NCBI GenBank assembly: GCA_964459435.1
Contig: CAYWLU010000003.1
Span: forward strand, 1-46,694
DNA length: 46,694 nucleotides
Direction: 5' to 3'
DNA from: an uncultured Candidatus Peribacteria bacterium
GTDB taxonomy: Bacteria; Patescibacteriota; Gracilibacteria; UBA4473
Part shown: in pieces, positions 128 through 45,640 of the stretch
Numbering within the stretch: position 1 is the first letter of the stretch
How the letters are laid out: every line of letters starts with the position of its first letter
The notes under the pieces: model-generated
Databases searched by the model: none
Seen by the model: only the letters and a program-made list of their open reading frames with translations
What the model was told of the DNA's origin: nothing
Made by a program: the position numbers and the translations under genes

Positions 128-335
128 TTCGTCGGTGAGGACTTCGTTGGACTCACGATCCGCCACGGCGGATAGTTCGTTATACTTCGTCTCACCTCCT
201 CTTGTTCGTACGGAGATCTTCAAGCTCATTTAACGCTATTGATTCGCTATACTCGTTAACAGCTATTCGCTTTCAGCTACCCCGTTCTCACATGAAATCT
301 CTATTCATCCTCAGCTACTTCATATTCAGAGTTTT
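128..335. repeat. GC-rich tRNA-flanking repeat, copy A (junction motif, hairpin, one ~115-nt unit plus a partial unit)
   Basis: TCGTCGGTGAGGACTTCG at 129-146, hairpin ATCCGCC..GGCGGAT at 158-173, unit 186-300 matching the units at 15499-15745 (blocks TTCGTCTCACCTCCTCTTGTTCGTACGGA and TTCGCTATAC..CTATTC..GCTACCCC). The only ORF here runs through the tRNA. Confidence 0.6.
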
Positions 336-4467: not shown

Positions 4468-4542
4468 GCGCGTATCGTATAGTGGCTATTACACGGCCTT
4501 GCCAAGGCTGAGATACGGGTTCGACTCCCGTTACGCGCTCCA
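4468..4542 (+). tRNA. tRNA-Gly (anticodon GCC), CCA encoded
   Basis: Acceptor GCGCGTA/TACGCGC, anticodon stem CGGCC/GGCTG with loop TTGCCAA, T arm ACGGG-TTCGACT-CCCGT, discriminator T, CCA. Confidence 0.9.
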
Positions 4543-4725
4543 AAAGAATTCCGATATACCTTTTGGGTATAACGGAATTCTTTTTGTATCGTGATGAGAA
4601 CCCGTATTTTTGCGAAGCAAAAATGGGTTCGATGAGCCGAAGAGAGGAAAGAGAGCTTGCTCTCAATTTCCGAGCGAGGTGAAACGACTAAACGAAGCGA
4701 AGGAGTATTCCCGTTACGCGCTCCA
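4543..4725 (+). mobile_element. ~165-nt mini-element (CIME/MITE-like) ending in a 17-nt direct repeat of the tRNA-Gly 3' end
   Basis: TCCCGTTACGCGCTCCA at 4709-4725 is identical to 4526-4542. GGGTTCGA at 4625-4632 repeats the T-stem/T-loop start. The block at 4633-4708 is ~83% identical to 14850-14923 (reverse strand). Confidence 0.45.
4546..4585 (+). terminator. intrinsic terminator after tRNA-Gly
   Basis: GAATTCCG/CGGAATTC outer stem plus TATACC/GGTATA inner stem, followed by TTTTT. Confidence 0.75.
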
Positions 4726-4729
4726 TAAT

Positions 4730-5924: not shown

Positions 5925-5971
5925 AGTTTGTCAAAATAGAACTCTTTATAAAGTCTTGGAATAACATTGTG

Positions 5972-5987
5972 TTATATTGTAATATAA
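5972..5987. repeat. AT palindrome copy (TTATATTGTAATATAA, 15/16)
   Basis: One of 9 copies of TTATATTATAATATAA; lies 107 nt upstream of the argH start. Confidence 0.8.
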
Positions 5988-9857: not shown

Positions 9858-10679
9858 ATGAATCCTACAAAAATCTCCGATTCCGTTCTCAAAAAAATAA
9901 AAACCCAAAATATAGCTCCAAAAGCTAAATGGAAATTCTTAGCTAAAAATACTTCCTTTTGGATTTTATTTGGCTTATCAGTACTACTTAGTGCTGTTGG
10001 AGTATCTGTAGTTATTTTTGCTTTCATGGAAACGGATTTTGATCTTTTCTCCTATTTAGATGGATCTGGAATCCAAAGGTTTTTCAGTCTTTTACCTATT
10101 TTTTGGATTTTGTTCTTTGCGATCTTTATTGGTGTAGCATTGTTAGGGTTGAGAAAAACCAAAGGGGGATATAAGTTTTCTATTTCTAAGTTACTACTTG
10201 TTAATATGGTTTTAGGAATTTTTTTAGGAACTTTTGCTTATAACCTAGGGGGAGCAGAACAATTTGAGAATATTTTTGCGAACAATGTTAGGTTCTATCA
10301 CGGAATACGAGACCAACGGATAAAGCGTTGGGCTCGTCCAGAAGGAGGAAGACTTGCTGGGGAAATTATAGAAATAAAAGCTGATAAGATTTTTCTTTTA
10401 GATGATTTTGATCAAAAAGAGTGGATAGTAGATGCTAAGAATTTAATAAAAGAACCATTTCTCGAACTTATTCTGGGGATGAAAGTTAGAATGATTGGAG
10501 AAGAAATTTCTGGAAATAAATTCAAAGCAAAAGTTATTCAGCCTTGGCGAAGACGACCAGAAATAGATTCAAAAAGACCAAGAGGATTTAAGGAAGAAAG
10601 GAGTAGAATGCTGACACCAAGGTCTTTTATAGATAAAGAAATTTTTTCTGAAAGAAGTATGGATAAGTCTTTTGAATAA
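9858..10679 (+). CDS. membrane protein, putative anti-sigma factor
   Basis: Starts 10 nt after the sigma gene; short cytoplasmic N-terminus, several TM helices, extracytoplasmic C-terminal domain. Position-based call only. Confidence 0.4.
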   Translation: MNPTKISDSVLKKIKTQNIAPKAKWKFLAKNTSFWILFGLSVLLSAVGVSVVIFAFMETDFDLFSYLDGSGIQRFFSLLPIFWILFFAIFIGVALLGLRKTKGGYKFSISKLLLVNMVLGIFLGTFAYNLGGAEQFENIFANNVRFYHGIRDQRIKRWARPEGGRLAGEIIEIKADKIFLLDDFDQKEWIVDAKNLIKEPFLELILGMKVRMIGEEISGNKFKAKVIQPWRRRPEIDSKRPRGFKEERSRMLTPRSFIDKEIFSERSMDKSFE

Positions 10680-10691
10680 AAAAAGTGTTCA
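10670..10691. repeat. 22-bp direct repeat, left copy (TTTTGAATAAAAAAAGTGTTCA)
   Basis: Identical to 11241-11262; overlaps the stop codon of the preceding gene. Confidence 0.9.
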
Positions 10692-11216: not shown

Positions 11217-11246
11217 AGCAGGGGTTAATGCTCCTGCTTTTTTTGA
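11217..11246 (+). terminator. intrinsic terminator
   Basis: AGCAGGGG / GCTCCTGCT stem followed by a T run. Confidence 0.7.
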
Positions 11247-11262
11247 ATAAAAAAAGTGTTCA
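11241..11262. repeat. 22-bp direct repeat, right copy
   Basis: Identical to 10670-10691. Confidence 0.9.
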
Positions 11263-12248: not shown

Positions 12249-12270
12249 TTATTTTTAGTTTTGTGTATTA

Positions 12271-12298
12271 TTGACAGAATATTACGAATAAATATTAT
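12271..12298 (+). promoter_or_regulatory. near-consensus sigma-70 promoter (TTGACA-N16-TATTAT)
   Basis: TTGACA at 12271-12276, TATTAT at 12293-12298; an ATG follows 6 nt later. Confidence 0.6.
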
Positions 12299-12304
12299 AA
12301 AACT

Positions 12305-12427
12305 ATGGAAGGAGATATGTGTCGAACAAATATTATTTTTGAAACTTTCTTAAAAGAAGGGGGTACTCCTGCATATTTAAATTATCTAACATGGTGGAAT
12401 AAGTTATTATGGTGCATAACAAATTAA
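12305..12427 (+). CDS. 40-codon small ORF (MEGDMCRTNIIFETFLKEGGTPAYLNYLTWWNKLLWCITN); candidate peptide substrate or leader peptide
   Basis: Below the 60-aa cutoff of the ORF track. Leaderless geometry from the promoter; a second ATG at 12317 is preceded by GGAGAT. Aromatic/Cys-rich C-terminus with tandem TGG TGG. Confidence 0.4.
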   Translation: MEGDMCRTNIIFETFLKEGGTPAYLNYLTWWNKLLWCITN

Positions 12428-12464
12428 TATTTAGCTTTAAAAGCTAAGAAATGTGCACCAAGAA

Positions 12465-12489
12465 GCATCTGAATTACAGATGTTTTTTT
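12465..12489 (+). terminator. intrinsic terminator between the small ORF and the radical SAM gene
   Basis: GCATCTG-AATTA-CAGATGT stem-loop followed by T7, 20 nt before the ATG at 12510. Confidence 0.65.
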
Positions 12490-12509
12490 ATTTTTAACTT
12501 ATTTTTATA

Positions 12510-14546
12510 ATGAAAAATTTATTACCAGAAAATGCGGGATCCGAATTAATTGAGATCCCTGTCGCAGAAACAAAATACTTAGATGTTCGAGGGAATCTAG
12601 AGGAAGTTCCTACTAGTCTAAGAAATTTATTGATTTCCTTGGAAGATAGTTCAGCTGATTCAGTTGAGTTGGACACAGATTACAGGAATGAATTTCTGAC
12701 ACTTGCCGGAAATGAAATATATGAAGCTAAATTATCTGAACTCATAGATTCTGAAAGTACTTCATATACTATAGCTGAATTTGATGAAAGCTATTTAGGT
12801 CATCATTCTCTCATAATAGTTAGACAACTTCTTCCATATCTAGAATCTATTGGAATTAGTGGTACGGTGTCTGATAACGGGGGGGAGCTGAACTTTCCTA
12901 CAGTAGGATATATAGCCTTTGATATTGATGGAAAAATTCAAATATGTGATGATTCCCGCCTTATAGACAAAGATATCTTTCATTATTTGTCTTGCCACAT
13001 AAGTCAGGATCTTGCTGTTGTAGTAAGGCGAAATAATCAGTTTATATATGCAAGTGATATATCAAGATTTGAAAAAACACCAAAAAGCAAAGAAGGAAAG
13101 AATGCTTTTTTAGGGGCAGATATTATTGAATTTCACTCAGTAGCTCCGAATTTCGGCTCTCAACTTGGATATCTATTTCAAAAAATAATTGAATCTTTTG
13201 AAACAGGTAAACTTGGTATGCTAGTTGTGGATCTTTATGGGCAAAATATTTTTAAAGACGAAGAAGGAAATGCAATACATCGTTTTGAAAGAGATAAATT
13301 TATTCCTTTAAAAGGAGATAATGGTGAATTATTAGGATTTATAGGAGTTGCCGATGTGTTTTTTCAAAATGTTGAAGAAAAACTTAGTCCATACGAAGGA
13401 GGTGAATATTCTATTACTCCGATAACCCAGTTGGATATACAAACAAAGGATTTTTCTAAGAGAGTTGCTGAAATCACTAGTGACAATCTTGTAGAAGAAC
13501 TTCTCGATGAGGGGATAACAAGTGAACGGAAAATACAAATAGTTCAGAAAATATTAAATAATAAAGATCAATATCAGGATGAAGTTTTAGAAATATCAGC
13601 AAAATTGAACAGAGAGCGTTTTGGTGGACGACTTAATTTATATGGGATTAGTTATATTTCGGATAAATGTGTTAATGATTGTACATATTGTGGACACCAT
13701 GCGCAGTTAAGAACAGATAGGGATACTTTAACTGAAGAAGAAATGAGGCTGGATTTCAGTGTTGTTTTGAATAATAAACCAGATGAATTTTGTATTCTTG
13801 CAGGAGAATATCCGGGAGGAATAGAAGATTATTGTCAGGCGCTAAGAGTCCTTAATACCATTGATGATGAAACGGGAAATAGTCTTCAACGCATATCATT
13901 AAATGTTGCGCCATTATCCGAAGATGGTTTTAAGACATTAGTTGCTGCTCATTCAGGAAAAATTCCACTTCAATATAGATTATTTCAGGAAACTTATGAT
14001 CAAGAGCAATATGCAAAATATCATAAAAAAGGACCAAAAAAGGATTTTCAGTTTAGAGCGGAGGCACAAGATAGAGCCTTGAAAGCTGGATTTGATGAAG
14101 TTGGTTTGGGGGTTTTAATGGGTCTAAATACTAGAAATAATCCCTATCTTAATTTCGGTCACGATTTTGAGATATTATCTCTTATAAGACATGCTTATAA
14201 ACTAAAGGAAGATCATGGAAAATTTCCATCTGGAATTTCGATTCCGAGACATCAGCCAGTATCAGGATATTCTTTTGAAACACCTAATCCTATAGATGAT
14301 GACTTGTATGTTTTTTATCATGCATTATTGAAATTAGTTTTACCAGAGACGAAATTAATAATTACAAGCAGAGAAACACAGGAGTTAATTCAAAGGGTTG
14401 AGCCTTATGTGAATATAAGAGATTTAGCTCCGCGTCCTGGAGTTGGTGGTAATTATAGATCTAGCACAAACTTCCAAAATGAATTGGGAGATGCACGAAG
14501 TGCTGCAGAAATAATTAAAGACTTAAAAGAAAGACTTCTTTTATAG
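12510..14546 (+). CDS. radical SAM enzyme: ThiH/HydG/NosL-type (aromatic amino-acid lyase family) C-terminal domain fused to an unknown ~370-aa N-terminal region
   Basis: SDKCVNDCTYCGHH (CX3CX2C), FQETYDQEQYAKYHKKGPKKDF, VGLGVLMGL and IITSRETQ parallel ThiH blocks. No motif recognised in residues 1-320. Confidence 0.75.
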   Translation: MKNLLPENAGSELIEIPVAETKYLDVRGNLEEVPTSLRNLLISLEDSSADSVELDTDYRNEFLTLAGNEIYEAKLSELIDSESTSYTIAEFDESYLGHHSLIIVRQLLPYLESIGISGTVSDNGGELNFPTVGYIAFDIDGKIQICDDSRLIDKDIFHYLSCHISQDLAVVVRRNNQFIYASDISRFEKTPKSKEGKNAFLGADIIEFHSVAPNFGSQLGYLFQKIIESFETGKLGMLVVDLYGQNIFKDEEGNAIHRFERDKFIPLKGDNGELLGFIGVADVFFQNVEEKLSPYEGGEYSITPITQLDIQTKDFSKRVAEITSDNLVEELLDEGITSERKIQIVQKILNNKDQYQDEVLEISAKLNRERFGGRLNLYGISYISDKCVNDCTYCGHHAQLRTDRDTLTEEEMRLDFSVVLNNKPDEFCILAGEYPGGIEDYCQALRVLNTIDDETGNSLQRISLNVAPLSEDGFKTLVAAHSGKIPLQYRLFQETYDQEQYAKYHKKGPKKDFQFRAEAQDRALKAGFDEVGLGVLMGLNTRNNPYLNFGHDFEILSLIRHAYKLKEDHGKFPSGISIPRHQPVSGYSFETPNPIDDDLYVFYHALLKLVLPETKLIITSRETQELIQRVEPYVNIRDLAPRPGVGGNYRSSTNFQNELGDARSAAEIIKDLKERLLL

Positions 14547-14830
14547 TTTTTGTACTAGAAAGCCCTGGGTAAGGCTTAATAAACTGCCCAGAGGTGATGT
14601 TTAATTTATGTTAGTTCTCTTAATAATTATAAAAAACCTGCTACACCACAAGGGGGAACTGCGGTCTTGAAAAATTAAATATTACAAAATAAGCCCCTCG
14701 ACTTTGCTCGGGGCACTCATTCGCCTGCTTTCTTTTACAAATGTATAACTTCCGATGATAGTGCTAGTGGTCGAAGACCATGAGCGACCGACCCTTCGGC
14801 CTTGAGCTATGTCGAAAGGAGGGAGTCGAA

Positions 14831-15013
14831 TGGTGGAGGTGGCGAGAATACTTCCTCACTTCGTTCGGTCGTTTCACCTCATTCAGAAATAGAGAGCGAG
14901 CTCTCTTTCTTCATTTCGGCTCATTGAACTCTGCGAGTTAAATTTCACTTCCTGCTACGCAGGAATAAAAAACAGGCCTATCCCCGCAAGGGGGACATGC
15001 CTATTTTTTTAAC
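14831..15013 (-). mobile_element. ~165-nt mini-element downstream of ssrA ending in a 19-nt direct repeat of the tmRNA 3' end
   Basis: TGGTGGAGGTGGCGAGAAT at 14831-14849 is identical to 15014-15032. A T-arm fragment CGCAGAGTTCAAT (reverse complement of 14924-14936) precedes a block (14850-14923) homologous to 4633-4708. Confidence 0.45.
14966..15002 (-). terminator. intrinsic terminator after tmRNA
   Basis: On the minus strand, AGGCATGTCCCC-CTTGC-GGGGATAGGCCT followed by TTTTTT. Confidence 0.7.
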
Positions 15014-15439
15014 TGGTGGAGGTGGCGAGAATTGAACTCGCGTCCAAAGAGGAAATCTATTTTTATCTACGAAGCCTAGTTCAGTTGGTTATTTCTCTTG
15101 ATTAGAACTGAACAAAAAACAAAAGAAGATGACCGAATATTTTCCTTAAAAAGTTGGTCAAACTTTATAAGTAAGGATCCTTAATTTTAGAAAGTAAAAG
15201 ACTATGGATCAACATCTAATACTTCCTGGCGAGCCAAAAGGCTCAAGCCAAGTTAGGCGTAAGCATAAGCTACTGGTGCTGGAGCAAAAGCTCTGGCAAC
15301 ATTTTTAGCAAAATTGCTTACACGTGCAACAAATAAATTTTTTGCATTTAAGTTTGTTCATCGGATATACCGGCAGATGAACGTGCCGAACTCGCAAAAA
15401 ATAAATTTCTAAATCTCTCTGTCAAAGCCGAGCACCCCC
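15014..15439 (-). ncRNA. ssrA: tmRNA (one-piece), 426 nt
   Basis: 5' GGGGGTG pairs with 3' CACCTCC-A-CCA, including a G3:U pair; GGCTTTGACAG near the 5' end; T arm GCGAG-TTCAATT-CTCGC. The tag frame ends GCT TAT GCT TAC GCC TAA (..PVAYAYA). Confidence 0.9.
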
Positions 15440-15745
15440 GTTGTCGTCGCCAGAGGACTACACTATCTCGCAAATAGCTTTGCTATTGGCTCGATTTGTT
15501 TCGTCCTCGCTCCTCTTCGCTCAAATGGAGGTCTTCGTCCTCACTTTACGGAATTCTTCGCTACACTCAGAATTCCTATTCGGACTCAGCTACCCCATTT
15601 TCGCGGTTTCAAAGAATAATTATTTCGTTTTCGCTCCTCTCACTCACACGGACTACTCGGCTTTATAACGAGATTTTCTTGCTACACGTGAAAATCTCTA
15701 TTCAGCCTGCGTTACCCCATGTTCGTGTGAAAATCTTAAAAACTA
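15440..15745. repeat. GC-rich tmRNA-flanking repeat, copy B (junction motif, hairpin, two tandem ~125-nt units)
   Basis: TCGTCGCCAGAGGACTAC at 15444-15461, hairpin AATAGC-TTT-GCTATT at 15473-15487, units at 15499-15623 and 15624-15745 sharing two conserved blocks. Confidence 0.65.
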
Positions 15746-15749
15746 TTTG

Positions 15750-15765
15750 TTATATTATAATATAA
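15750..15765. repeat. AT palindrome copy (TTATATTATAATATAA, 16/16; 18-bp palindrome with flanking G/C)
   Basis: Exact copy between the repeat units and the rel stop codon. Confidence 0.85.
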
Positions 15766-18812: not shown

Positions 18813-18892
18813 CAGGTGTAGAATGAAGAATAAAATAGGAAGGTTTCTATTTTTAACTCTTTGACTCTAGAATTTTTCAATGATTTCTCTTA

Positions 18893-18908
18893 TTATATTA
18901 TAATATAA
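18893..18908. repeat. AT palindrome copy (16/16)
   Basis: Exact TTATATTATAATATAA, 88 nt upstream of the PBP start. Confidence 0.85.
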
Positions 18909-18995
18909 CAAGAACAGCTAATAACTAAAGACTAAAGACTAAAGACTAATTCATAATTGCAATCCACTTTTAGTTGATTAGAATCTTAGAGTTAC

Positions 18996-21182
18996 ATGCA
19001 TTCTGCTTTTTTTGTTCGAGTTCGGATTTTAAAGATAATTTTCCTTGGGGTATTTGTCCTTTTTGTTTTACGTCTTTTTGATCTTCAATTTCTAAAATAT
19101 GATGAATTTTATGCGGAAGCTAAGGCTCAACACGAAAAAAGATCTATTTTGCCAGCTCAACGGGGGAATATTTTAGTTCGCAAAAATCGTTTATCAGAAG
19201 AAGTTACACCGTTGGCGACAAATAATACGTTGAAGATGCTTTTTGTTGATCCTGTGATTTTGGCTTATCCGAGTTATAATCCGAACTTAGATTCAACTGT
19301 TCAAGAAAAAGGGAATCCTTCTTTGGCGGCGGAACTTTTAGCTCCGCTTCTAATTCATGCTCATTGTGAAAAAATAGAAGGTTGTGAAATAGAAATAGAT
19401 TCTCAAAAGTGGACAGAAGAGGAGCATACTGCCATAGATAATTATCGGATAGAACTGGAGAAGATATTTGTGGAATTAGAAAAAAGAAGAGTTGTGCTAG
19501 CAACAGATGTTGCAGAATCACGAATTCAAACAATTAAAGAACTTCGTTTGTCTAGTGTTTGGTTAGAAGGATCATCGGTAGTTGTTGATCCTACTAGGAT
19601 TAGTTCGATAGACAATATAGTCGAACAAATTTCTCCTTTACTTAATATTGATGAAAGGAAATTAAAGAAATTATTAGCCCGTCGTCCTAAACGGTATGTA
19701 GAAATTTCTAATAAGATTGTTCCAGAAGTAGCGGATCAGATTTTGGAGTTAAAAAATAATCCCCGTTACCGTAGTATTTTACGGGGGATACAGTTGAGAG
19801 ATGAACACTGGCGTTATTATCCGGAACGGGAACTTGCTGCTCAAATTCTAGGATTTGTGGATTCTAGTAATAAAGGACAATATGGAATTGAGGGGCGATT
19901 TGATCAAGAATTGGCTGGTCAAGAAGGAGTTATCTTTGGAGCGACAAATACCAGAGGGCAAAGAATCCTTGGAAAGGGATCAGAGATATTACGCGCTCGG
20001 GACGGAGCAGATATTCTTATTTCTATTGATCGAGTGATTCAGGGAGAGGTGGAAAAGATTTTAGAGGAGGATCTTAAACGATTTGACGCAGATTTCGGTC
20101 AGGTAATTGTTGTTGAACCTAAAACTGGTCGGATTTTAGCTATGGCTAATGCACCTTCTTTTGATTCTAATGAATTTGGAAAAGCCTTCTTGCGTTATGA
20201 AGTTACTCCAGAACAAGAATTGGAAGACAGAGAAGATGAAAATTTTAACCAAAGAATTCCTACTGTTGTAGATCGAGGACGGTATTATAGGTATTTTAAT
20301 AAATGGGGACCAGAAGTATTTAGAAACAAAGTTATTTCTGATGTTTATGAGCCAGGGTCGGTGGTTAAAGCTTTAACTATGGTAGCGGCTTTTAACGCTG
20401 ATGAAGTTAGTCCCCAAACAACTTTTAATGATAATGGTCCTATTGAAGTAGATGAATTTGAAATTCGTAATGCTGATGAAAAATATGAGGGAATTACTAC
20501 TATGGTTGAGGTAATAAACAGATCTCTTAATACTGGTATTGCTTTTATAACAAGAAAAATGGGGGCAAAATTGCTTTATGAATATTTAATTAATTTTGGG
20601 TTTGGTCAGTATACGGATATAGAATTAGACGGAGAGGCAGATGGAAAATTAGAATTTTGGAAAGATTGGGAAGAATCAGAATTGGTAACTAGGGGGTTCG
20701 GACAGGGGATGACTAGTTCGGCACTTCAAATGGTCATGGCTTTTTCTTCACTTGCTAATGGAGGATATCTAATGAAACCAATCCTGGTGGAGGAAATTCG
20801 TTATCCAGATGGTAAGGTTAAGGAATTTTATCCAGAAAAGATTAGAAGGGTTATTTCTGATGAATCTTATAATAAAATAAAAGCCATGCTTCTTAATTCT
20901 GTTTCTAATGGAATTGCGAGAGGTGCGAAAGTATGGGGTTATTCTGTAATGGGAAAAACAGGAACTTCTCAGACTTATAAAAATGGGAAGGTCTTAGAGG
21001 GATTGGGAACTACAATTACTAGTTTTGCAGGATTTGGTCCTTTTGATGATCCCGCTTTTGTGGTTTTAGTGAAGTTTGATAGACCAAGAACTTCGCAGTG
21101 GGGATCCGAAACTGCTGCAGGAACCTTTAAAAGGGTGGCAGAATTTTTGTTCCAACATCTAGGAATTCCTCCGGATAAGTAA
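18996..21182 (+). CDS. class B penicillin-binding protein (PBP2/FtsI-type transpeptidase)
   Basis: N-terminal TM anchor; SxxK (GSVVKAL), SxN (RSLNTG), KTG (GKTGTSQ). Confidence 0.85.
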   Translation: MHSAFFVRVRILKIIFLGVFVLFVLRLFDLQFLKYDEFYAEAKAQHEKRSILPAQRGNILVRKNRLSEEVTPLATNNTLKMLFVDPVILAYPSYNPNLDSTVQEKGNPSLAAELLAPLLIHAHCEKIEGCEIEIDSQKWTEEEHTAIDNYRIELEKIFVELEKRRVVLATDVAESRIQTIKELRLSSVWLEGSSVVVDPTRISSIDNIVEQISPLLNIDERKLKKLLARRPKRYVEISNKIVPEVADQILELKNNPRYRSILRGIQLRDEHWRYYPERELAAQILGFVDSSNKGQYGIEGRFDQELAGQEGVIFGATNTRGQRILGKGSEILRARDGADILISIDRVIQGEVEKILEEDLKRFDADFGQVIVVEPKTGRILAMANAPSFDSNEFGKAFLRYEVTPEQELEDREDENFNQRIPTVVDRGRYYRYFNKWGPEVFRNKVISDVYEPGSVVKALTMVAAFNADEVSPQTTFNDNGPIEVDEFEIRNADEKYEGITTMVEVINRSLNTGIAFITRKMGAKLLYEYLINFGFGQYTDIELDGEADGKLEFWKDWEESELVTRGFGQGMTSSALQMVMAFSSLANGGYLMKPILVEEIRYPDGKVKEFYPEKIRRVISDESYNKIKAMLLNSVSNGIARGAKVWGYSVMGKTGTSQTYKNGKVLEGLGTTITSFAGFGPFDDPAFVVLVKFDRPRTSQWGSETAAGTFKRVAEFLFQHLGIPPDK

Positions 21183-25841: not shown

Positions 25842-26957
25842 ATGAACCAAAATAATATAGACGGTGCTAATTTACACAAAACATATGATGTGTTGCTAGC
25901 TTCTTTTGCCCAGAAAAATGGTGCTTCTAGAGGGAGAAAGCATAAAGAACTACCAGATCCAGAGAGACTACCTTTTCAGAGAGATAGAAGCAGAATTATT
26001 CATACTAATTCTTTTCGTCGTTTAAAAGGAAAGATGCAAGTGGTGTCGCCGCATAAAAGCGATCATTTTAGAAATAGGTTGAGTCATACGCTAGAGGTTG
26101 CCCAAATTGCGAGAGATTTAGCTCGTTCACTTTGTCTTAATGAAGATTTAGCAGAAGCGGTGGCATTGGCTCATGATCTTGGACATCCACCGTTTGGTCA
26201 TTCTGGGGAAAAAGCTTTGGATCTAAAAATGAGAGAACAAGGTTCTTCTTTTGAACACAACAAGCAATCGCTTCGTATTGTAGAAATTTTTGAGTCTCGT
26301 TATCTGGATTTTCCCGGACTTAATCTGACTTACGAAGTATTGGAAGGAATTCAAAAACATGAGACATTTTTTGATCGTCCACAGGGAAATAAGATTTTTA
26401 CCCCACATTTAGAAGCACAATTGGTGGATATTGCGGATGAAATTGCTTATTTATCTGCGGATTTAGAAGATGGATTGAGAGGCGATTTTTTTGAAATAAA
26501 AGATTTATTAGGTTTAGTTATACCAGGGCAGGCGATAGGAGAATTAAAGGGAGACGCTAAATTCCATCGTCCAGCAATTATTAGAAGAATTATTAGGAAT
26601 TTTTTGGTTAAAATCGTGATGGATACAAAAGAAAACTTGAACAAAAAAAGTGTTCAATCTTTGCAGGATGTGCAAAACTTAAAGACTAAGATTGTTAGTT
26701 TTGATGAAGAGTGGTTAATTGGGTTTAAGCAACTGCGTCAGTTCCTTTGGGACAGATATTATTCTGCTCCAGAAATTTTAGCAGTAAATATTAGAGGGCA
26801 GGAAATACTAGCAAATATTTTTGATTTCTTAATAAAAAATCCTCAGCGCATTCCTGATAATTTCATGGTGCAAGAAAAAGATTCGATTAGAAGAATCTGT
26901 GACTATATTGCGGGAATGACTGATGAATTTGCTGAGAAATTTATAGCTAATGTATAA
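25842..26957 (+). CDS. dgt: dGTP triphosphohydrolase-like HD-domain protein
   Basis: FQRDRSRIIH, RLSHTLEVAQIARDLA, HDLGHPPFGH. The ATG at 25842 is preferred over the TTG at 25836. Confidence 0.85.
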   Translation: MNQNNIDGANLHKTYDVLLASFAQKNGASRGRKHKELPDPERLPFQRDRSRIIHTNSFRRLKGKMQVVSPHKSDHFRNRLSHTLEVAQIARDLARSLCLNEDLAEAVALAHDLGHPPFGHSGEKALDLKMREQGSSFEHNKQSLRIVEIFESRYLDFPGLNLTYEVLEGIQKHETFFDRPQGNKIFTPHLEAQLVDIADEIAYLSADLEDGLRGDFFEIKDLLGLVIPGQAIGELKGDAKFHRPAIIRRIIRNFLVKIVMDTKENLNKKSVQSLQDVQNLKTKIVSFDEEWLIGFKQLRQFLWDRYYSAPEILAVNIRGQEILANIFDFLIKNPQRIPDNFMVQEKDSIRRICDYIAGMTDEFAEKFIANV

Positions 26958-27177
26958 GGTATCATGTATCAAGTATTATGTATAAAAAAATCAGAATATA
27001 AATTCTAAATTACTATTTTTTGAGCGCTGAGCTTTAAATTCAAAATTTATATTTAATTTAACTTCGTATTAAAGCTTGAAATTGATATTTTATACTTAAT
27101 ACATAATACGAAATACATTCTACATTATTTTTTTTTGCTTGCTTAAACTCTTTTTATAAGCAAAATATCGGTCATAA

Positions 27178-28518: not shown

Positions 28519-28791
28519 ATGGCACACAAAAAAGCTGGTGGATCGTCCAAAAACAATAGAGACTCACAATCAAAACGTCGAGGAGTGAAACGTTTTGGTG
28601 GACAGACTGTGTCTGCTGGTGAAATTATTGTTCGTCAAAAAGGAACTAAATTTCGTCCCGGAGAAAATGTTGGTTTGGGGAGAGATTTTACTTTATTTGC
28701 TGAAAAAGCAGGGAAAGTCGCTTTTACAGAAAAAGCAGTAACTAGATTTGATGGACGAAGATACGAAAAGAAGTTTGTGAATGTGGGATAA
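28519..28791 (+). CDS. rpmA: 50S ribosomal protein L27
   Basis: [31 protein letters not shown]. Confidence 0.92.
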
Positions 28792-29044
28792 TTTTCAATC
28801 TACAATCTACAATCTTCAATTTTCAAACAAAAAGGGGAGTATTTTTGTTATATTATAATATACATTAGCTATTAGCGGTTGGCTTTTAGTTTTTTGAGAA
28901 AGTTCGATTCGTTACGACGAATCGAATTCTAGGAATGATTATTTTAAAAAATTAGACAAACCCATTGTTCATAATTAAAATGACACTTGTTAGGCTTCAT
29001 TGTTCGTAATTGATAATTGAAGATTTATAATTGATAATTAAATA
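28792..29044. repeat. mosaic intergenic element with inverted terminal modules, AT palindrome and a perfect 10-bp hairpin
   Basis: AATCTTCAATT at 28811-28821 versus AATTGAAGATT at ~29014-29024; palindrome at 28848-28862 (15/16); TTCGATTCGT-TACG-ACGAATCGAA at ~28895-28918. Confidence 0.55.
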
Positions 29045-30935: not shown

Positions 30936-33900
30936 ATGACCGAAGCCGATAAACTTAAGTTGCCATTTCAGCTTGATTTGGCAGAACAAATCACTTTACT
31001 TGAGAAAACTAAGCATTTGACCTTGGTTAATCTCGGGAATGTTCCAGCGAAGTCTTTTGTTATATCTCAAATTTTAGATAAGACTAATTTTCAAAATATC
31101 TTTTGGGCTTCTACGGATGAAAAAGCAGATCAGATTTTTTCGTCTGCGGAATTATTTTTTAATGGGAATGTGCATTTAGTGCCTGCCAAAGTTACTATTG
31201 CTAAGTTTTATGAATTACGAGATTTGTTGGTAGAAGAAAAAAATGCTTTATTTCTTTTTGAAGATTTTGAGGCAGTATTAGAGCAAAAATTCCCAACTTA
31301 TAGTGATATTCAGGCAGATAAGATTGTGCTTAAAAAAGGTGAAAAGATTCAAATATTTACTCTTTTTGAACAACTAGAATCGCTTGGATATCGCCCAGCA
31401 GAAGATCAATTAATGAATTCTGGAGAGTTTGTTCGCAAAGGAGAAACGCTTTTTGTATATCCAGAAAATCACCCTTGTCCCTTTAGAATTGTCTTGGATG
31501 GAAATGAAATAGAAGAAATTAGTGTTTTTGTGCAGAATGAACAAAAAAAGTGTTCAGTTGTTAATGAGGAAGATGTTTTAAAAGGGGGAAAATTAGAGAT
31601 TTATCCGGCTTCTTTTAAACAGGAATTGGAGGGAAAATTTGTAAATTTAATTGAGGGAAAAAAAGACACTCTTTTTGTTTCAGATGATTTAGACAATGAT
31701 ATTTGTCCTAGTGGTGATTTCTTTCAGGTTAAATTCACTACTTTTCCAGGAGAAAATGAAAAGTTTTTTCATCTTAATTTTTTCTCGGTACTGCCTTTCT
31801 ATACTGTTCCAGATTTTGTTCTTGATATAAAAGAGCGACTTAGAAGGGGTTTTGATATTGTCTTAATGACGAAAAAATTTGATGAAGTTACTCGTATTTT
31901 TAAGGAAGATAATGTGATGTTTACTGAGGATTTAGATGAAAAAAATCCTTCTACAGTAAAGATTGTAAAAGTGGCTAGAGATGTTTTTTTACCGCATTCT
32001 TTTCAAAACAATACGAGTAATCTTTTCTTTTTGACGGATCGGGAAATTTTCAAATTTCACCGTTCTTCTCGGCAAAAAAAGGCAGTAGCAGGAGTGAATT
32101 TAGATTTAATGACTTCGCTTAAACCAGGGAATTTTGCAATCCATGTTGATCATGGATTGGCTAAATTTGATGGAATAGTTAGACGAGACCTTGGAGAGAA
32201 TTTTGGTGGAGTGAGAGAATATTTAAAATTAGAATATGCTGGAAATGATAAACTTTTTGTACCAGTAGAATCGGCAGAAAAAGTAACAAAATTTATTGGT
32301 GATGATGATCCTGTTTTACATAAATTAGGATCTTCGGAATGGTCTCATGCTCAGAAAAAATTAAAGGTAGAAGCGGAGCGAATTGCTAAAGATTTACTTA
32401 AATTATATGCGGCACGGGAGATGGCTAAAGGTCATAAATTTTTAGAAGATGATGAGATGATGAGGGATTTTTGCGATGGTTTTCCATACGAATTAACTCC
32501 TGGACAACGGCAAACTTGGTTTGATGTTCAAAGAGATATGGAATCTTCTCGAACAATGGATCGACTAGTTTGTGGTGATGTTGGTTTTGGGAAAACAGAA
32601 ATTGCGATGAGAGCGGCCTTTAAATGTTTTAGATCAAATATGCAGGCGGTAATTTTGGCACCTATTACAATTTTAGCAGAACAGCATTATCAATCTTTTC
32701 AAAAAAGAATTAAAGAAAAAAATTATAATGTGCGGATAGAGTTGTTATCTCGTTTTCAATCTCCAGCTCAGCAAAAAAAGATTGTTTCTGATATTGCTCA
32801 TGGACTAGTAGATATTGTAATTGGGACCCATCGAATATTGTCGGAAGATATCAAATTTAAAAATTTAGGGGTTATTGTTATTGATGAGGAACAACGGTTT
32901 GGGGTTAAGCAAAAAGAAAAACTAAAAGGGCTCAGGGCAGCGGTAGATATTTTAACTATGACGGCAACACCTATTCCGCGGACCTTGAATATGTCTCTTA
33001 ATAAATTAAAAGATATTTCTACAATTACCACGCCTCCACCGGGGAGATTGCCAGTGGTAACAGAGGTAAGGAAATATAATCTTTCTCTTATTAGAGAAAG
33101 GATTGTTGAGGAAATTGCTAGAAAAGGGCAGGTCTATTTTTTGCATAATCAAGTGCAAACCATAGAGGCTCAAGCAGAACAAATGAGGATTCTTATTCCA
33201 GAAGCACGATTCATTGTTGCTCATGGACAACTTTCGCCAACTGAGTTAGAAGAAAGAATTAGAAAATTTAAGAATGGAGAAGTAGATGTGTTAATTGCTT
33301 CTACAATTATAGAAAATGGAATAGACCTTCCTAATGCTAATACTTTGTTGGTTAATCGAGCGGAAAAATTTGGTCTGTCACAACTATATCAGTTGCGAGG
33401 TCGGGTTGGGCGTTCTAGGACGCAAGCCTACGCGTATTTTTTATATCATGGACAGAAGTTGGAACTAGAATCTAAAAAGCGACTGAGGGCTATTGTGGAA
33501 GCTTCTGAGCTTGGTTCTGGGTTTCAGATTGCCATGCGAGATTTGGAGATTAGGGGAGCAGGAGAAGTGTTGGGATTATCTCAATCTGGAACAATTAAGA
33601 CGGTAGGAGTATCTCACTTCATGAGACTTCTGAATAAAACAGTGGAAGAAATGAAGAGTGGGGAAGTAGCGACAGATATTAAGGAGGAAGAGGCAATTAC
33701 GGTGGAAATTCCTTTATCGGCCTATATTCCGCCTTCTTTTATTCCTAATGCTGAAGAAAAGATTCAAGTGTATAAAGAATTAGCTTCGGCAGAAGATACA
33801 AAATCTTTAGATGATTTCAAACATGATTTGAGAGAAGACTACGGAACGCTACCGAGAGAGGTAGAAAACTTATGTAAGGTTATTGCTCTCAAGATGTTGC

Positions 33901-34154
33901 TCAGAGAGGTTAATATTTCTGGCGTAAAGATTCACCGTTCTACTCATAAGGATTACGAAATTGTTTTGAGAATGGGAAGAGAATTTACTCCAGATCAAGT
34001 ATTCGGTTTAATAAAAAATTCTAAAGAAAAATGGGTGATTACTGCTCAAGCAATTAAAATGTCTTTTGAAAAATTACCTGTGACTTGGTATGAGGATTTG
34101 GTGAAAGAAGTGGAGTATTTAAAACCAATCAAAAAAACGGAAAAGAAAAATTGA
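30936..34154 (+). CDS. mfd: transcription-repair coupling factor
   Basis: GDVGFGKTEIAMRAAF, VIDEEQRFGV, MTATPIPRTL; 1072 aa. Confidence 0.9.
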   Translation: MTEADKLKLPFQLDLAEQITLLEKTKHLTLVNLGNVPAKSFVISQILDKTNFQNIFWASTDEKADQIFSSAELFFNGNVHLVPAKVTIAKFYELRDLLVEEKNALFLFEDFEAVLEQKFPTYSDIQADKIVLKKGEKIQIFTLFEQLESLGYRPAEDQLMNSGEFVRKGETLFVYPENHPCPFRIVLDGNEIEEISVFVQNEQKKCSVVNEEDVLKGGKLEIYPASFKQELEGKFVNLIEGKKDTLFVSDDLDNDICPSGDFFQVKFTTFPGENEKFFHLNFFSVLPFYTVPDFVLDIKERLRRGFDIVLMTKKFDEVTRIFKEDNVMFTEDLDEKNPSTVKIVKVARDVFLPHSFQNNTSNLFFLTDREIFKFHRSSRQKKAVAGVNLDLMTSLKPGNFAIHVDHGLAKFDGIVRRDLGENFGGVREYLKLEYAGNDKLFVPVESAEKVTKFIGDDDPVLHKLGSSEWSHAQKKLKVEAERIAKDLLKLYAAREMAKGHKFLEDDEMMRDFCDGFPYELTPGQRQTWFDVQRDMESSRTMDRLVCGDVGFGKTEIAMRAAFKCFRSNMQAVILAPITILAEQHYQSFQKRIKEKNYNVRIELLSRFQSPAQQKKIVSDIAHGLVDIVIGTHRILSEDIKFKNLGVIVIDEEQRFGVKQKEKLKGLRAAVDILTMTATPIPRTLNMSLNKLKDISTITTPPPGRLPVVTEVRKYNLSLIRERIVEEIARKGQVYFLHNQVQTIEAQAEQMRILIPEARFIVAHGQLSPTELEERIRKFKNGEVDVLIASTIIENGIDLPNANTLLVNRAEKFGLSQLYQLRGRVGRSRTQAYAYFLYHGQKLELESKKRLRAIVEASELGSGFQIAMRDLEIRGAGEVLGLSQSGTIKTVGVSHFMRLLNKTVEEMKSGEVATDIKEEEAITVEIPLSAYIPPSFIPNAEEKIQVYKELASAEDTKSLDDFKHDLREDYGTLPREVENLCKVIALKMLLREVNISGVKIHRSTHKDYEIVLRMGREFTPDQVFGLIKNSKEKWVITAQAIKMSFEKLPVTWYEDLVKEVEYLKPIKKTEKKN

Positions 34155-34376: not shown

Positions 34377-34552
34377 AACCAAGAGACTTGGTTAAGTTGC
34401 TAGAGGAAAATAAGTTCTTCTTTGTTCGTCAGGCAGGTAGTCATGCTATTTATAAAAAAGAGGATCATAAATTAATAATAGTTCCGATTCACAATAGAGA
34501 TGTTCCAATAGGAACTTTGAAAGCCATTTTAAAGGATGCTGGATTAAAATAG
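34373..34552 (+). CDS. hicA: HicA-family mRNA interferase toxin (59 aa, below the ORF-track cutoff)
   Basis: MKPRDLVKLLEENKFFFVRQAGSHAIYKK..IGTLKAILKDAGLK; ATGA overlap with the hicB stop. Confidence 0.75.
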   Translation: MKPRDLVKLLEENKFFFVRQAGSHAIYKKEDHKLIIVPIHNRDVPIGTLKAILKDAGLK

Positions 34553-34567
34553 TATATTATAATATAC
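34552..34567. repeat. AT palindrome copy (GTATATTATAATATAC, core 14/14)
   Basis: Overlaps the last base of the hicA TAG stop; lies between convergent hicA and dnaA. Confidence 0.8.
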
Positions 34568-34685
34568 TAAGGAAAAGCGAGAGAGTTGGAAAGTTAGAGA
34601 GTCAAAGAGTTAAAAAATAGAAACTCTTCTAATTTCGGTCTTTTGAGCTTTCTTACTTTTCAGCCCTATTAATCATTCTTCGTTA

Positions 34686-37532: not shown

Positions 37533-37716
37533 CTTTAGGCTCTAAACCCTATATAAACAATTTTAAATTTTTAATTTTTAATTTTTAAATAATTTCTAAT
37601 ATCCTAATTTTTAAAAATTAGAATCTATTACAACTTTTAAGTTATTTATAGCATATTATAATATAATACCAGTCCTTAATTGAAGATTGATAATTGCAGA
37701 TTGAAGATTGATAACT
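37533..37716. repeat. mosaic intergenic element, inverted homologue of 44283-44436
   Basis: Shares the modules CTAAACCCT, (AATTTTT)n, the AT palindrome (37653-37666) and (ATTGAAG/ATTGATA)n with the lspA-upstream spacer, in opposite orientation. Confidence 0.55.
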
Positions 37717-37728
37717 TGTTATCTATTT

Positions 37729-38319: not shown

Positions 38320-38446
38320 GATTAAATTTTAAAGCATGTTTTTAGATATGTATAATGTATCATGTATTAAGTATTATATATTGAGAATTTAAGGAAAGTC
38401 TGATAAATACTTCACCATAGAAAAATTCTCAGATTTTTTATACTCA

Positions 38447-40220: not shown

Positions 40221-40404
40221 TGGAGGATTAATTTTCAATAAAAAATTGAGTCGCCAGTCGCTAGTCATTAGTCGTTAGTTTTTGATGGTTATTTTTTATT
40301 AGATTTTTAAAGACTAAAGACTAATGACTTATGACTAAAGGCTAAATTAATTTGACTTTTGTCTTTCGCACCATACAATTCACGAGAATTTTTAGAGCTT
40401 ATTA

Positions 40405-41778: not shown

Positions 41779-41836
41779 AAGAAAATTACAATCTTCAATA
41801 TCTAAGTTCTAAATTCTAAGCTCTAAGTTCTAAACT

Positions 41837-43156: not shown

Positions 43157-44242
43157 ATGAATATAGTTAGTGCATTTTGTTTTTTTGTAGAAAATATTTT
43201 AAAGGGCGAGGAGGGGATTTTTTGGTCAGAAGATAGTGGTGATGGGGAAATTAGATGGATTTTTGGTTGGGGAAAGAAAATCAAGGCAGATTTTACTAAA
43301 GGACCATTCCCTTTTTTCTCTATAACTTCTTTTTTGGGAGAGGAGAGCTCGTTCTGGCATTTTGAGAACTGGGTTACGAACGAAGACGGTGTAAAGAATG
43401 GGGAAAAAAGTTTTCCGCAAAGTTTGCAGGATTTGCGAATGTTTTCCACAGAAAAGAGCCTAGAATTTTTTGCTAGTGAGACTAAGGACAGTTTCTGTCA
43501 GAAAGTAGAGAAAATAAAAAGGCTTGCAGAAGAAGGAGATGTCTGGGTTCTTAACTTAGCTCAAGAATTTGCAGGTGAAGCAAAAGATGAGAAAATATTA
43601 TTAACTGCTTTTTGGCGATTTTTGCAGTTACAGAAAAGACATGCTGGGGGTGTAGTATGGACTAATGAACAAAAATTTTGTTCATTCTCTCCGGAGATTT
43701 TTCTTATTCAAGATGGCAAAACACTGGCTACTTTTCCAATCAAAGGAACAGGAACCAAGGAATATTTAGAGGATAGTCAGAAAGAAATTGCAGAATTGTC
43801 TATGGTTACTGATTTGCTTCGTAATGATTTAGGACAAATAGCTAAGCGTGTTTGGATGGAAAAAGAAAGAGTATTAGTAAATAGAGGTACTCATCATGAT
43901 GCTCAAGCGCAAATATTTGCGGAACTATCAAGTTCTATTCTTACTTGGGAAGATTATCAGAAATTATTACCAGCGGGTTCTATTTCTGGAGCACCCAAGA
44001 AAAGGGTAGTGGAAAATATCCTTTCTTTGGAGGGTTTTGAGAGAAAATGGTATACAGGCACCTTTGGGGTGAAATTTTTGCCTGAGAGTGCAATTTTTAA
44101 CATTTTGATTAGAACTTTGTTCTTAGAAGATAAGAAATGGAGATTTCCTGTGGGAGCCGGAATTACTTTCGAATCGGATTCAGAATTAGAATGGCAGGAG
44201 ATCTTGCAAAAAGCAGAAATCTTGAGAGAATGCCTCTTGTAA
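43157..44242 (+). CDS. chorismate-binding enzyme (aminodeoxychorismate/anthranilate synthase component I-like), short form
   Basis: FPIKGTGT and GSISGAPKKR blocks. The N-terminal ~100 aa are not recognisable, so the start is uncertain. Confidence 0.65.
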   Translation: MNIVSAFCFFVENILKGEEGIFWSEDSGDGEIRWIFGWGKKIKADFTKGPFPFFSITSFLGEESSFWHFENWVTNEDGVKNGEKSFPQSLQDLRMFSTEKSLEFFASETKDSFCQKVEKIKRLAEEGDVWVLNLAQEFAGEAKDEKILLTAFWRFLQLQKRHAGGVVWTNEQKFCSFSPEIFLIQDGKTLATFPIKGTGTKEYLEDSQKEIAELSMVTDLLRNDLGQIAKRVWMEKERVLVNRGTHHDAQAQIFAELSSSILTWEDYQKLLPAGSISGAPKKRVVENILSLEGFERKWYTGTFGVKFLPESAIFNILIRTLFLEDKKWRFPVGAGITFESDSELEWQEILQKAEILRECLL

Positions 44243-44440
44243 TGTAGAATGTAGAATGATGAATGGAGAATAAATAATCTTCAATTATCAATCTTCAATT
44301 TTCAATAAATCGAATATTATATTATAATGTAATAGAGCTTAGGGTTTAGAACTTAGAACTTAGAAAATAACAAAATACAAATTTAAAAAATTAAGATATT
44401 ATTTACAAAATTAAAAATTAAAAATTAAAAATTTTCAACA
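44243..44440. repeat. mosaic intergenic element: 28 heptads in a single register, with an embedded AT palindrome
   Basis: 44243-44438 parses as TGTAGAA TGTAGAA TGATGAA TGGAGAA TAAATAA TCTTCAA TTATCAA TCTTCAA TTTTCAA ... TTAAAAA x3 TTTTCAA. Palindrome TTATATTATAATGTAA at 44317-44332. Confidence 0.7.
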
Positions 44441-45395: not shown

Positions 45396-45472
45396 GGGCG
45401 GTTAGCTCAGCTGGCTAGAGCGCCTGCTTGACTTGCAGGAGGCCACAGGTTCGAGTCCTGTACCGCCCACCA
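45396..45472 (+). tRNA. tRNA-Val (anticodon GAC), CCA encoded, T at position 37
   Basis: Acceptor GGGCGGT/ACCGCCC, anticodon stem CCTGC/GCAGG with loop TTGACTT, T arm ACAGG-TTCGAGT-CCTGT, discriminator A, CCA. Confidence 0.85.
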
Positions 45473-45640
45473 TCGTCGCTGGATGACTTCATTAACTTCG
45501 TCCGCCAATGGCGGACTTGTTTTATTTCGTGATCGCTCCTCTCACTCACATGGAGGCTTTCGGATTCCTTAGTCGGAGCATGTATGTATCACATGCTCTG
45601 AAACGTTTCGAACCAGGTTAATATAAGTCTCCGACATGAG
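45473..45640. repeat. GC-rich tRNA-flanking repeat, copy C
   Basis: TCGTCGCTGGATGACTTC at 45473-45490, hairpin GTCCGCC-AAT-GGCGGAC at 45500-45516, block TTCGTGATCGCTCCTCTCACTCACATGGA at 45526-45554, hairpin GAGCATGT..ACATGCTC at 45576-45598. Confidence 0.6.

Follow-up and report, generated by a model that had tools for sequence, protein, structure and literature searches.

It is textbook knowledge that mobile DNA integrates into the genes of tRNAs and tmRNA, and the T-loop was reportedly described by Williams in 2002 as a sublocation for islands in such genes. To our knowledge, the mobile DNA of bacteria of the candidate phyla radiation (CPR) is poorly charted. The ssrA islands of Dehalococcoides have a 20-bp repeat, insert midway through the T-loop and carry a conserved motif of 15 bp just upstream of every repeat (McMurdie et al. 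2011, PMC3146451). They stand in tandem, with a CcrB-like serine recombinase of ~540 aa (DsiB) next to ssrA, and some of them have no integration genes (PMC3146451). In tDNA islands (Islander, PMC4383910) the split gene is restored; an island has the regenerated gene at one end and a displaced 3′ fragment at the other. Cis-mobilizable elements (CIMEs), as described for Streptococcus ICE families, are flanked by attL and attR, have no integration or transfer functions and accrete in tandem at hot spots (PMC5704250; also PMC3146451).

Here we describe the ssrA 3′ flank at 14547-15013 of the window, the whole 46.7-kb stretch of DNA that was analysed, and the family of small units to which it led. 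The flank resembles the Dehalococcoides islands in its apparent insertion in the middle of the tmRNA T-loop, in its tandem layers behind ssrA, in a motif upstream of the repeats and in layers without integration genes. Unlike those kilobase islands, its intact layer is ~165 bp long and non-coding, the motif has a different sequence, and the family also occurs at tRNA-Gly, tRNA-Ser and tRNA-Ala genes. The ~540-aa serine recombinase beside ssrA is absent from the window and has a counterpart, by class, place and length (548 aa) only, in the related locus L004. As in tDNA islands, the sublocation is the T-loop, with the block of identity spanning the T-loop to the gene 3′ end; unlike tDNA islands, the units have neither integrase nor cargo, are ~100 times smaller, are near-constant in length and contain an internal T-arm-like hairpin. 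As in CIMEs, there are att-type flanks, no integration or transfer genes, and stacking at a hot spot, but CIMEs are kilobase deletion derivatives of known ICE, whereas the units have no known parent and resemble a self-consistent, retargeted family. The Dehalococcoides ssrA islands are the closest described case, and the units are most likely a miniature form of the integrative elements of tRNA and tmRNA genes and their cis-mobilizable derivatives; in the literature we found no description of miniature, gene-less, size-constrained elements at several tRNA-type genes.

We regard it as probable that 14547-15013 is a variable ssrA 3′ flank produced by recurrent, conservative, site-specific integrations at the T-loop (58|59) of small, terminator-carrying elements that have no recombinase and are mobilised in trans, together with older, decayed layers and a radical SAM cassette.

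Layers behind the tmRNA gene

The window has a GC content of ~35%, and the proteins nearest to its RelA/SpoT and RpoB (79-93%) are named Candidatus Gracilibacteria. Apart from the features listed below, its genes are housekeeping genes (rpoB, relA, penicillin-binding protein, transketolase, dnaN, mfd, dnaA, purA, rnc). A Pfam scan of the larger ORFs of the 46.7-kb window found a recombinase or transposase domain in none of 29, and the 165-bp unit contains no ORF. The features, with the ssrA flank read on the minus strand, are:

15014-15439, minus: tmRNA gene (ssrA; ARAGORN and Rfam RF00023, 94.7 bits), the proposed insertion target
15014-15032, minus: direct repeat copy 1, the final 18-19 nt of ssrA (T-loop nt 58/59 through CCA)
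14966-15013, minus: terminator 1, bidirectional (A-run, GC stem, T-run), the left part of the mini-element
14949-14965, minus: small hairpin TTCCTGC-GTA-GCAGGAA
14924-14939, minus: palindrome AACTC-GCA-GAGTT + CAA, whose 3′ arm resembles the 5′ strand of the tmRNA T-stem and the T-loop start
14849-14923, minus: purine-rich block of type A (TGAGCCGAA...GAGGTGAAACGACCGAACGAAGTGAGGAAGTA), 75 nt, the right end of the mini-element
14831-14848, minus: direct repeat copy 2, a second ssrA 3′ end, nt 59-76 (a numbering that implies no origin)
14665-14830, minus: older layer, beginning with the T-loop-like TTCGACTCCCTCC and containing terminator 2
14625-14664, minus: terminator 3, truncated, corresponding to the 3′ half of the terminator located directly behind ssrA in L002
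12250-14624, plus: radical SAM cassette, a ThiH/HydG-like gene at 12510-14546 (Pfam) with a conserved 130-nt upstream region, located between ssrA and an ADI/DDAH-family gene
4468-4542, plus: tRNA-Gly(GCC), the second proposed target in the window
4543-4707, plus: sister mini-element, with terminator 4543-4587, hairpin GAGAACCC..GGGTTCGA at 4596-4632 and type A block 4633-4707
4708-4725, plus: second tRNA-Gly 3′ end, nt 59-76, exact over 17 nt (4709-4725)
38-127, minus: tRNA-Ser (ARAGORN and Rfam searches)
45396-45472, plus: tRNA-Val

All the items that the original prediction placed downstream of ssrA are present in the sequence, some with slightly corrected coordinates. The 19-nt sequence of the tmRNA 3′ end, ATTCTCGCCACCTCCACCA, is present in exactly two places of the window, 15014-15032 and 14831-14849, and 0 of 100 shuffled sequences yielded a match of any kind. 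Between the two copies, terminator 1 has a folding energy of about -25 kcal/mol (-25.1; terminator scan and RNAfold), and is followed by the small hairpin, the palindrome and the block. The copy of the T stem and T-loop start with one extra base is GCAGAGTTCAA at 14924-14934, compared with GCGAGTTCAA in the gene, the extra base being an A. The motif in front of the block (GGTTCGA or GAGTTCAA), which at ssrA had been read as a copy of the T stem and T-loop start, is the 3′ arm of a hairpin found repeatedly in the units. Its match to the cognate gene is close in some units (8/8 at tmRNA) and poor in others (tRNA-Ala and the tRNA-Gly of L017), and it is thus more than a stray T-stem copy. Taken together, 15013-14849 probably represents one complete, non-coding unit of ~165 bp, the newest layer of the flank, lying between two copies of ssrA nt 59-76.

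Beyond the second repeat, the predicted T-loop-like fragment TTCGACTCCCTCC is found at 14818-14830. The second GC hairpin (14693-14714) and the TTATTTTG that follows it form terminator 2 (14685-14714; -15.8 kcal/mol, RNAfold), and the older layer that contains it has no similarity to any of the fetched loci. Further out, 14625-14664 aligns to terminator 1, as expected of the degenerate second terminator copy that had been proposed there. This terminator 3 is 100% identical over 30 nt to the intact terminator directly after tmRNA in L002 (12762-12791), and it now folds poorly (-7.6 kcal/mol) because its left arm is gone.

One architecture at four kinds of tRNA-type gene

The mini-element is, as originally predicted, common to tRNA-Gly and ssrA: at both genes the parts have an identical order and a period of 183 bp, and the blocks are ~83% identical. 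The ssrA block is 83% identical to 4627-4710 over 84-87 nt, 79% identical to 4627-4726 over 100 nt, and 87% identical to positions 271-354 of the fetched locus L009. Each unit has an intact gene at one end and, at the other, a direct repeat of the gene's 3′ fragment, exact over 19 nt at ssrA and 17 nt at tRNA-Gly. The difference between the window tRNA-Gly and its displaced copy at nt 59 (C59/T59) was considered as proof of which copy the element had brought in, and was set aside as ambiguous, the crossover possibly lying 3′ of nt 59.

In total, seven repeat-flanked units with one architecture were found, spread over tRNA-Gly, tRNA-Ser, tRNA-Ala and tmRNA genes in five assemblies: the window tRNA-Gly and tmRNA units, those at tRNA-Gly in L015 and L017, at tRNA-Ser in L018 (located by a systematic search for second copies of gene ends), at tRNA-Ala in L012 and at tmRNA in L002. 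In 7/7 units the repeat begins at T-loop nt 57-60, 17-20 nt from the end of the gene, a range that is consistent with one junction at 58|59. The repeat is exact over 17-20 nt and reaches the gene end in six of the seven, that of L002 being truncated to 10 nt. The repeat-to-repeat period is 183 bp for both window units, 190 bp in L015, 187 bp in L017, 184 bp in L018 and 190 bp in L002; the composite unit of L012, in which tRNA-Ala, a terminator and GAGAACCGAAAAAGGTTCGA precede a composite block (B+A) and a repeat exact over 19 nt, has a period of 240 bp.

An alignment of six units gives a common plan, and both hairpins show compensatory changes. In the second one the arm covaries with the T-loop-like motif, as GAACC/GGTTC in the tRNA units and AACTC/GAGTT in the tmRNA units; the form GAGAACC..GGTTCGA, with an arm change from CG to UA, is found in tRNA-Gly, tRNA-Ser and tRNA-Ala units, and CCCTTGTGG lies in the terminator loops of units at different genes. 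At the other end, a 25-mer, AACGACnnAACGAAGnGArGrAGTA, adjoins the repeat in different genomes, with blocks of type A as well as type B. A metagenome scan with this 3′ 25-mer located the L012 unit and further copies near tRNA-type ends: L009 has a hairpin and a type A block, L008 has the 25-mer downstream of a tRNA-Ser, and a phage-like contig (terminase with intein), which is L006 of the viral collection and L011 of the metagenome scan, starts within the motif. The copies in L008, L009 and L006 have no recognisable copy of the neighbouring gene's end. L002 (FLOH01000139.1) also carries, between HicA and Fic, a block of type B with a decayed end resembling that of tRNA-Gly behind it; the block and CTCCTGTTACACTTCA lie at 18917-19025.

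These copies bear on a local origin, in which tandem duplication and unequal crossing-over of the gene 3′ end and its terminator would have built the flank with no mobile DNA involved. The T-half and the repeat do together copy ~30 nt of the gene, imperfectly and with an interruption, terminator 3 is akin to terminator 1, and unequal exchange could yield the differing order of units in the window and in L002. However, a ~83%-identical block lies at two unlinked genes 10 kb apart and on unrelated metagenome contigs, and CCCTTGTGG loops and GAGAACC..GGTTCGA are common to tRNA-Gly, tRNA-Ser, tRNA-Ala and tmRNA units. Because copies exist at separate loci, this reading is strongly disfavoured, and we give it next to no credence.

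The unit ends are repeats of the att type and no recombination or transfer genes lie between them, as in CIMEs; the sublocation is the canonical T-loop one of tDNA islands, and an integrase of their own is missing. They have no inverted repeats at their ends and a duplication of 18 nt that is identical to the gene end, which sets them apart from MITEs. Insertion of the IS200/IS605, IS91 (GTTC target) or Helitron-like type was weighed because the left flank is always GTTCR; it was rejected as the main model, the 18-nt repeat being present and transposase genes and end structures absent. Viral scans with the 5′ portions of type A and type B blocks, and BLAST of both window units against cultured phages and plasmids, returned nothing; a scan of genome contigs with TGAGCCGAAN{26,42}GAGGTGAAACGA returned only one chance match, in an Acidobacteriota coding region.

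The constant block, followed by a segment that always equals nt 59-76 of the neighbouring gene, would also suit a functional RNA, either a scaffold with an 18-nt guide for RNA-directed homing or cleavage, or a CCA-ending mimic or decoy of a tRNA end. Two structural observations point the same way: the block pairs with the acceptor 3′ strand in the MFE folds of both window copies, and the block hairpin has one compensatory change (GGAAA/TTTCC versus AGAAA/TTTCT). The pairing registers with the acceptor strand are, however, unlike between the two window copies, the L009 copy disrupts one pair of the block hairpin, and the z-scores of the folds, -0.8 to -1.8, are weak. Upstream there is a strong terminator, the promoter-like motif of the lineage is absent before the unit, no TnpB, IscB, Cas12k or IS110-type effector gene was found, either in the window or next to units of the fetched loci, and the block matches no Rfam family even at E<10, apart from a trivial T-arm match to permuted tmRNA. 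We consider an RNA function of either kind very unlikely. More specific RNA candidates were rejected: a hammerhead-like reading of GUGAUGAG..CGA has the wrong core and Rfam is silent on it; a tRNA-like minihelix or T-loop intron is contradicted by the T-halves of L012 and L017, which are unpaired with the T-stem strand downstream, and by differing acceptor pairing registers; and for a CAST V-K homing crRNA, an omega RNA or an IS110 bridge RNA there is neither an effector gene nor scaffold similarity.

Variation at ssrA and tRNA-Gly among relatives

The presence of units and their order vary among relatives, with empty sites in L005 and L013 and sites filled with other variants in L002, L015 and L017. 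In L005 (RelA 79% identical), 5 nt separate the tmRNA CCA from the stop codon of a convergent gene of the ADI/DDAH family (arginine-deiminase-type), and this gap contains no unit, terminator or radical SAM gene; L013, which comes from the same assembly (GCA_021734525.1), has a tRNA-Gly without a unit. In L002 (RelA 87%), ~280 nt between tmRNA and the ADI-family gene hold two stacked units, both with a type D block. The inner one carries the intact form of the terminator that is truncated at 14625-14664 of the window, and its repeat is cut to 10 nt. The outer one has a partly deleted copy of terminator 1 with the same hairpin and palindrome, within a 53-nt stretch of 98% identity that includes the small hairpin at 14949-14965. 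The terminator types thus have in L002 the reverse of their order in the window.

L003 and L004 encode an identical RelA protein, and their sequences diverge immediately past the tmRNA CCA, a sign of recent integration at ssrA. L004 has there a large serine recombinase of 548 aa (Resolvase, Recombinase and Zn_ribbon_recom domains), the 3′ end of whose gene overlaps the tmRNA 3′ end. This recombinase element lies at the same ssrA end as the units and its far end is beyond the contig; it has no sequence in common with the units, and neither L004 nor L020 contains informative direct repeats. The repeated insertion at the ssrA 3′ end that was suspected from the window alone is borne out by an empty site (L005), two stacked units (L002) and divergence past CCA (L003/L004), and because these flanks vary, we regard the ssrA 3′ end as an active insertion hot spot in this clade.

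At tRNA-Gly, the terminator and hairpin of L015 are homologous (77% over 190 nt), yet its block is of type B; ~100 nt further out lies a degenerate remnant, TTCCCGTTACGATTC, with the end of a type C block in front of it. L017 has a type C block and an exact repeat with that genome's variant of the acceptor stem (GTCACGC). Similarity between units at one gene ends exactly at GTTCR|, and block types exchange at this point, A against B at tRNA-Gly and A against D at ssrA. The exchange is a hint that insertion at this T-loop position may involve a second step, separate from the first.

Neither L005 nor L002 has, between ssrA and the ADI-family gene, the radical SAM gene or the scars beside it (12250-14830), so that the proposed test of an island boundary has a positive result. 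Base composition gives no such mark, as 22 of 89 windows of equal size deviate at least as much as 12250-14830. The best homologue of the radical SAM protein, that of L020, is 63% identical, versus 87% for RelA. The ThiH/HydG-like family is rare (13 full-length homologues) and its members sit in other contexts, in L020 4 kb from a serine recombinase and a ParB-methylase module; the upstream region is 75% identical to that of L020. No displaced tmRNA end was found beside the ADI-family gene of the window. A TCCACCA at 12391-12400 was tried as the outermost tmRNA remnant and rejected, lying within the upstream region conserved in L020. The cassette fits the picture of an insertion hot spot at ssrA.

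The L004 recombinase element and the radical SAM cassette are full-sized insertions at sites of this kind and suggest another origin for the units, as non-mobile leftovers of full-sized islands or prophages at ssrA and tRNA genes, the block being the last piece of a right arm. The start of the phage contig (terminase with intein) within the block's 3′ motif and the visible decay of outer copies would fit such deletion remnants. Against them, random loss would not leave six independent units, at four genes and from five assemblies, with one four-part plan and a period of 183-190 bp, and the left edge of every block lies exactly at the T-loop-like GTTCR. We consider this origin unlikely.

Proposed integration in trans and its possible consequences

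In the integration model that we prefer, a donor or circular form would carry an attP-like site, in which the 3′ end of the block is fused with a copy of nt 59-76 of the target. By recombining with the gene, this form would restore an intact tmRNA or tRNA, with the element's terminator behind it and a second 3′ end at the far side. As the element has no recombinase, mobilisation in trans would be required; candidates are a large serine recombinase such as that of L004 at the ssrA 3′ end, or a tyrosine recombinase. A tyrosine recombinase of the Xer/integron-like type stands next to the L018 unit. We infer that the block serves as a recombinase-binding arm, and by analogy with the comparable motif of the Dehalococcoides ssrA islands the 25-mer at its 3′ end may be an element-side recombinase half-site. 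Older layers would move outward and decay, which would account for the 165-nt segment with its terminator, the truncated terminator of the L002 type and the radical SAM cassette.

Besides the exact repeats, the empty sites, the differing order of terminator types, the L003/L004 divergence, the conserved 25-mer and the common architecture described above, two observations count for the integration model: the repeat follows the local allele, that of L017 having the variant of its own tRNA-Gly, and the stacks decay outwards, as seen in the degenerate remnant of L015 and in the truncated second repeat and partly deleted outer terminator of L002. Against it count the lack of a recombinase gene in the unit and the window, the failure to find an autonomous element carrying the block, the absence of shared sequence between the L004 recombinase element and the units, the copies in L008, L009 and L006 with no recognisable gene-end repeat, and the size of the presumed double-stranded circle, 165-185 bp being at the lower limit for recombinases. 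A plain att model does not predict the near-constant size, the internal T-arm-like hairpin or the exact exchange of blocks at GTTCR|, and these misfits leave room for readings in which the repeat is made by insertion or the unit acts as RNA.

In one such reading, the units would be a retargetable family of ~165 bp, inserted at 58|59 of any tRNA-like T-loop by an enzyme that recognises the T-arm, with an 18-bp duplication made through staggered cuts at the T-loop and the CCA end. Recognition of the T-arm could possibly be helped by the element's own T-arm-like hairpin or by an RNA copy of it. We hold this to be quite unlikely; if it were true, passage from tRNA-Gly to tRNA-Ser, tRNA-Ala and tmRNA would need no change of a carried att site, and the element would be a portable terminator or insulator for tRNA-type genes in streamlined CPR genomes.

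If, as the integration model has it, the units move in trans, they would be the smallest integrative elements so far, and natural attP/attB pairs for several tRNA T-loops, an aid to finding recombinases and possible tools. The units provide the only terminator between ssrA and a convergent gene, and they mark a hot spot at which cargo such as the radical SAM gene enters tiny genomes. Several assemblies break exactly at units. The contigs L013, L014, L016 and L019 end at or shortly past tRNA-Gly, as is expected because repeats break assemblies.

A structured leader RNA motif at the 5′ ends of tmRNA and tRNA genes

Upstream of the tmRNA and of some tRNA genes lies an unrecorded structured RNA motif of approximately 110 nucleotides, frequently in tandem, located after a promoter-like motif and before the mature 5′ end of the gene.

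Window 15494–15602, minus strand: structured RNA leader motif
Window 15618–15724, minus strand: structured RNA leader motif
Window 180–289, minus strand: structured RNA leader motif
Related locus L015, 11708–12134: structured RNA leader motif
Related locus L012, 2126–2373, minus strand: structured RNA leader motif

The motif folds into three nested helices, with GGGGUAGC, GAGUAG and GAGUGUAGCGA conserved, and 10 of its 20 pairs carry compensatory changes. A covariance model with six copies as input recovered two independent copies 5′ of the tRNA-Ala gene of L012 (76 and 71 bits), and a search of Rfam with the motif gave no match. The copies finish with CGACGA, flush with the mature 5′ end of the gene. 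The motif is missing from the tmRNA leader of the related locus L005 and, compared with L015, from the tRNA-Gly leader of the window. Given these absences from corresponding leaders among relatives, the copies are insertion polymorphisms, like the gene-less mini-elements of about 165 bp at the 3′ ends of such genes.

Pieces of the same motif also occur in reverse, 3′ of the genes.

Window 45473–45598, adjoining the CCA end of tRNA-Val: partial leader-motif copy, antisense (25 bits, E approximately 4e-4)

Here the CGACGA end contacts the tRNA as it does in the leader copies, with the orientation reversed, and L003, a metagenome contig, has a comparable antisense piece 3′ of its tmRNA.

Variable DNA at the 3′ ends of tmRNA and tRNA genes

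The 3′ end of the tmRNA gene (ssrA) is occupied differently in two metagenome contigs, L003 and L004, in which RelA is identical and the sequences part directly after the tmRNA CCA.

L004 3121–4767, minus strand: gene for a 548-amino-acid large serine recombinase, compared with L003 12675–12766
Window 14818–14830, minus strand: TTCGACTCCCTCC, immediately 3′ of the second copy of the tmRNA end
Window 12510–14546, plus strand: gene for a 678-amino-acid radical SAM protein

Over its final 30 or so codons the recombinase gene runs antisense to the 3′ end of the tmRNA, and a type I restriction-like gene follows it. In the window, nucleotides 1–10 of TTCGACTCCCTCC equal the T-loop and the 3′ strand of the T-stem of the tRNA-Gly of the window (TTCGACTCCC); the 165-nucleotide segment that starts with TTCGACTCCCTCC had no match among the fetched loci. 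The C-terminal half of the radical SAM protein is 29–33% identical to ThiH/HydG and its N-terminal extension is uncharacterised. A search of 5.8 billion clustered proteins found only 13 full-length homologues, and their gene neighbourhoods differ.

Relatives vary in what defence or mobile DNA occupies the 3′ flank of tRNA-Ser(GGA), beside rpoB; in the window this flank is lost at the left edge.

L013 2431–6802: variable tRNA-Ser(GGA) 3′ flank
L015 2062–6379: the same flank
L016 1630–5944: the same flank
L017 1–7580: the same flank
L018 6–785: the same flank

The flank carries Cas9–Cas1–Cas2 with AbiEii in one version, a restriction-modification/EMARD set in another and, in a third, an integron/Xer-like tyrosine recombinase adjoining an 18-nucleotide-repeat unit.

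Reading frames and intergenic repeats

Under translation table 11, 3 of 19 long open reading frames stop at TGA (34152–34154, for example). Because Gracilibacteria reportedly read UGA as glycine, some of the ends assigned in the window may be wrong; this decoding has no effect on the finding of the mini-elements, which are non-coding.

Three kinds of short repeat recur in the window.

15746–15764, 28844–28862, 5968–5986, 18889–18907, 34548–34569, 37647–37668, 44313–44334: AT-rich palindromic motif, TTATATTATAATATAA and variants (repeat families D12 and D16)
18919–18971, 26950–26997, 28786–28826, 37677–37726, 38348–38381, 40244–40360, 41801–41832, 44251–44364: short tandem heptamer repeats
10673–10691, 11244–11262, 26638–26656, 31538–31556, 43666–43684: palindrome TGAACAAAAAAAGTGTTCA (family D3)

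The TTATATTATAATATAA-type motif is repeated across intergenic regions and, since it stands 7 nucleotides upstream of the tmRNA in L005, is probably a promoter or −10 element of the lineage. Tandem heptamers (TAAAGAC, ATGTATC, AATCTAC, TCTAAGT and others) occupy many intergenic spacers on both strands. The five copies of TGAACAAAAAAAGTGTTCA, 84–100% identical and mainly at gene ends, possibly represent a shared terminator or protein-binding site, and L017 contains a motif that resembles them.
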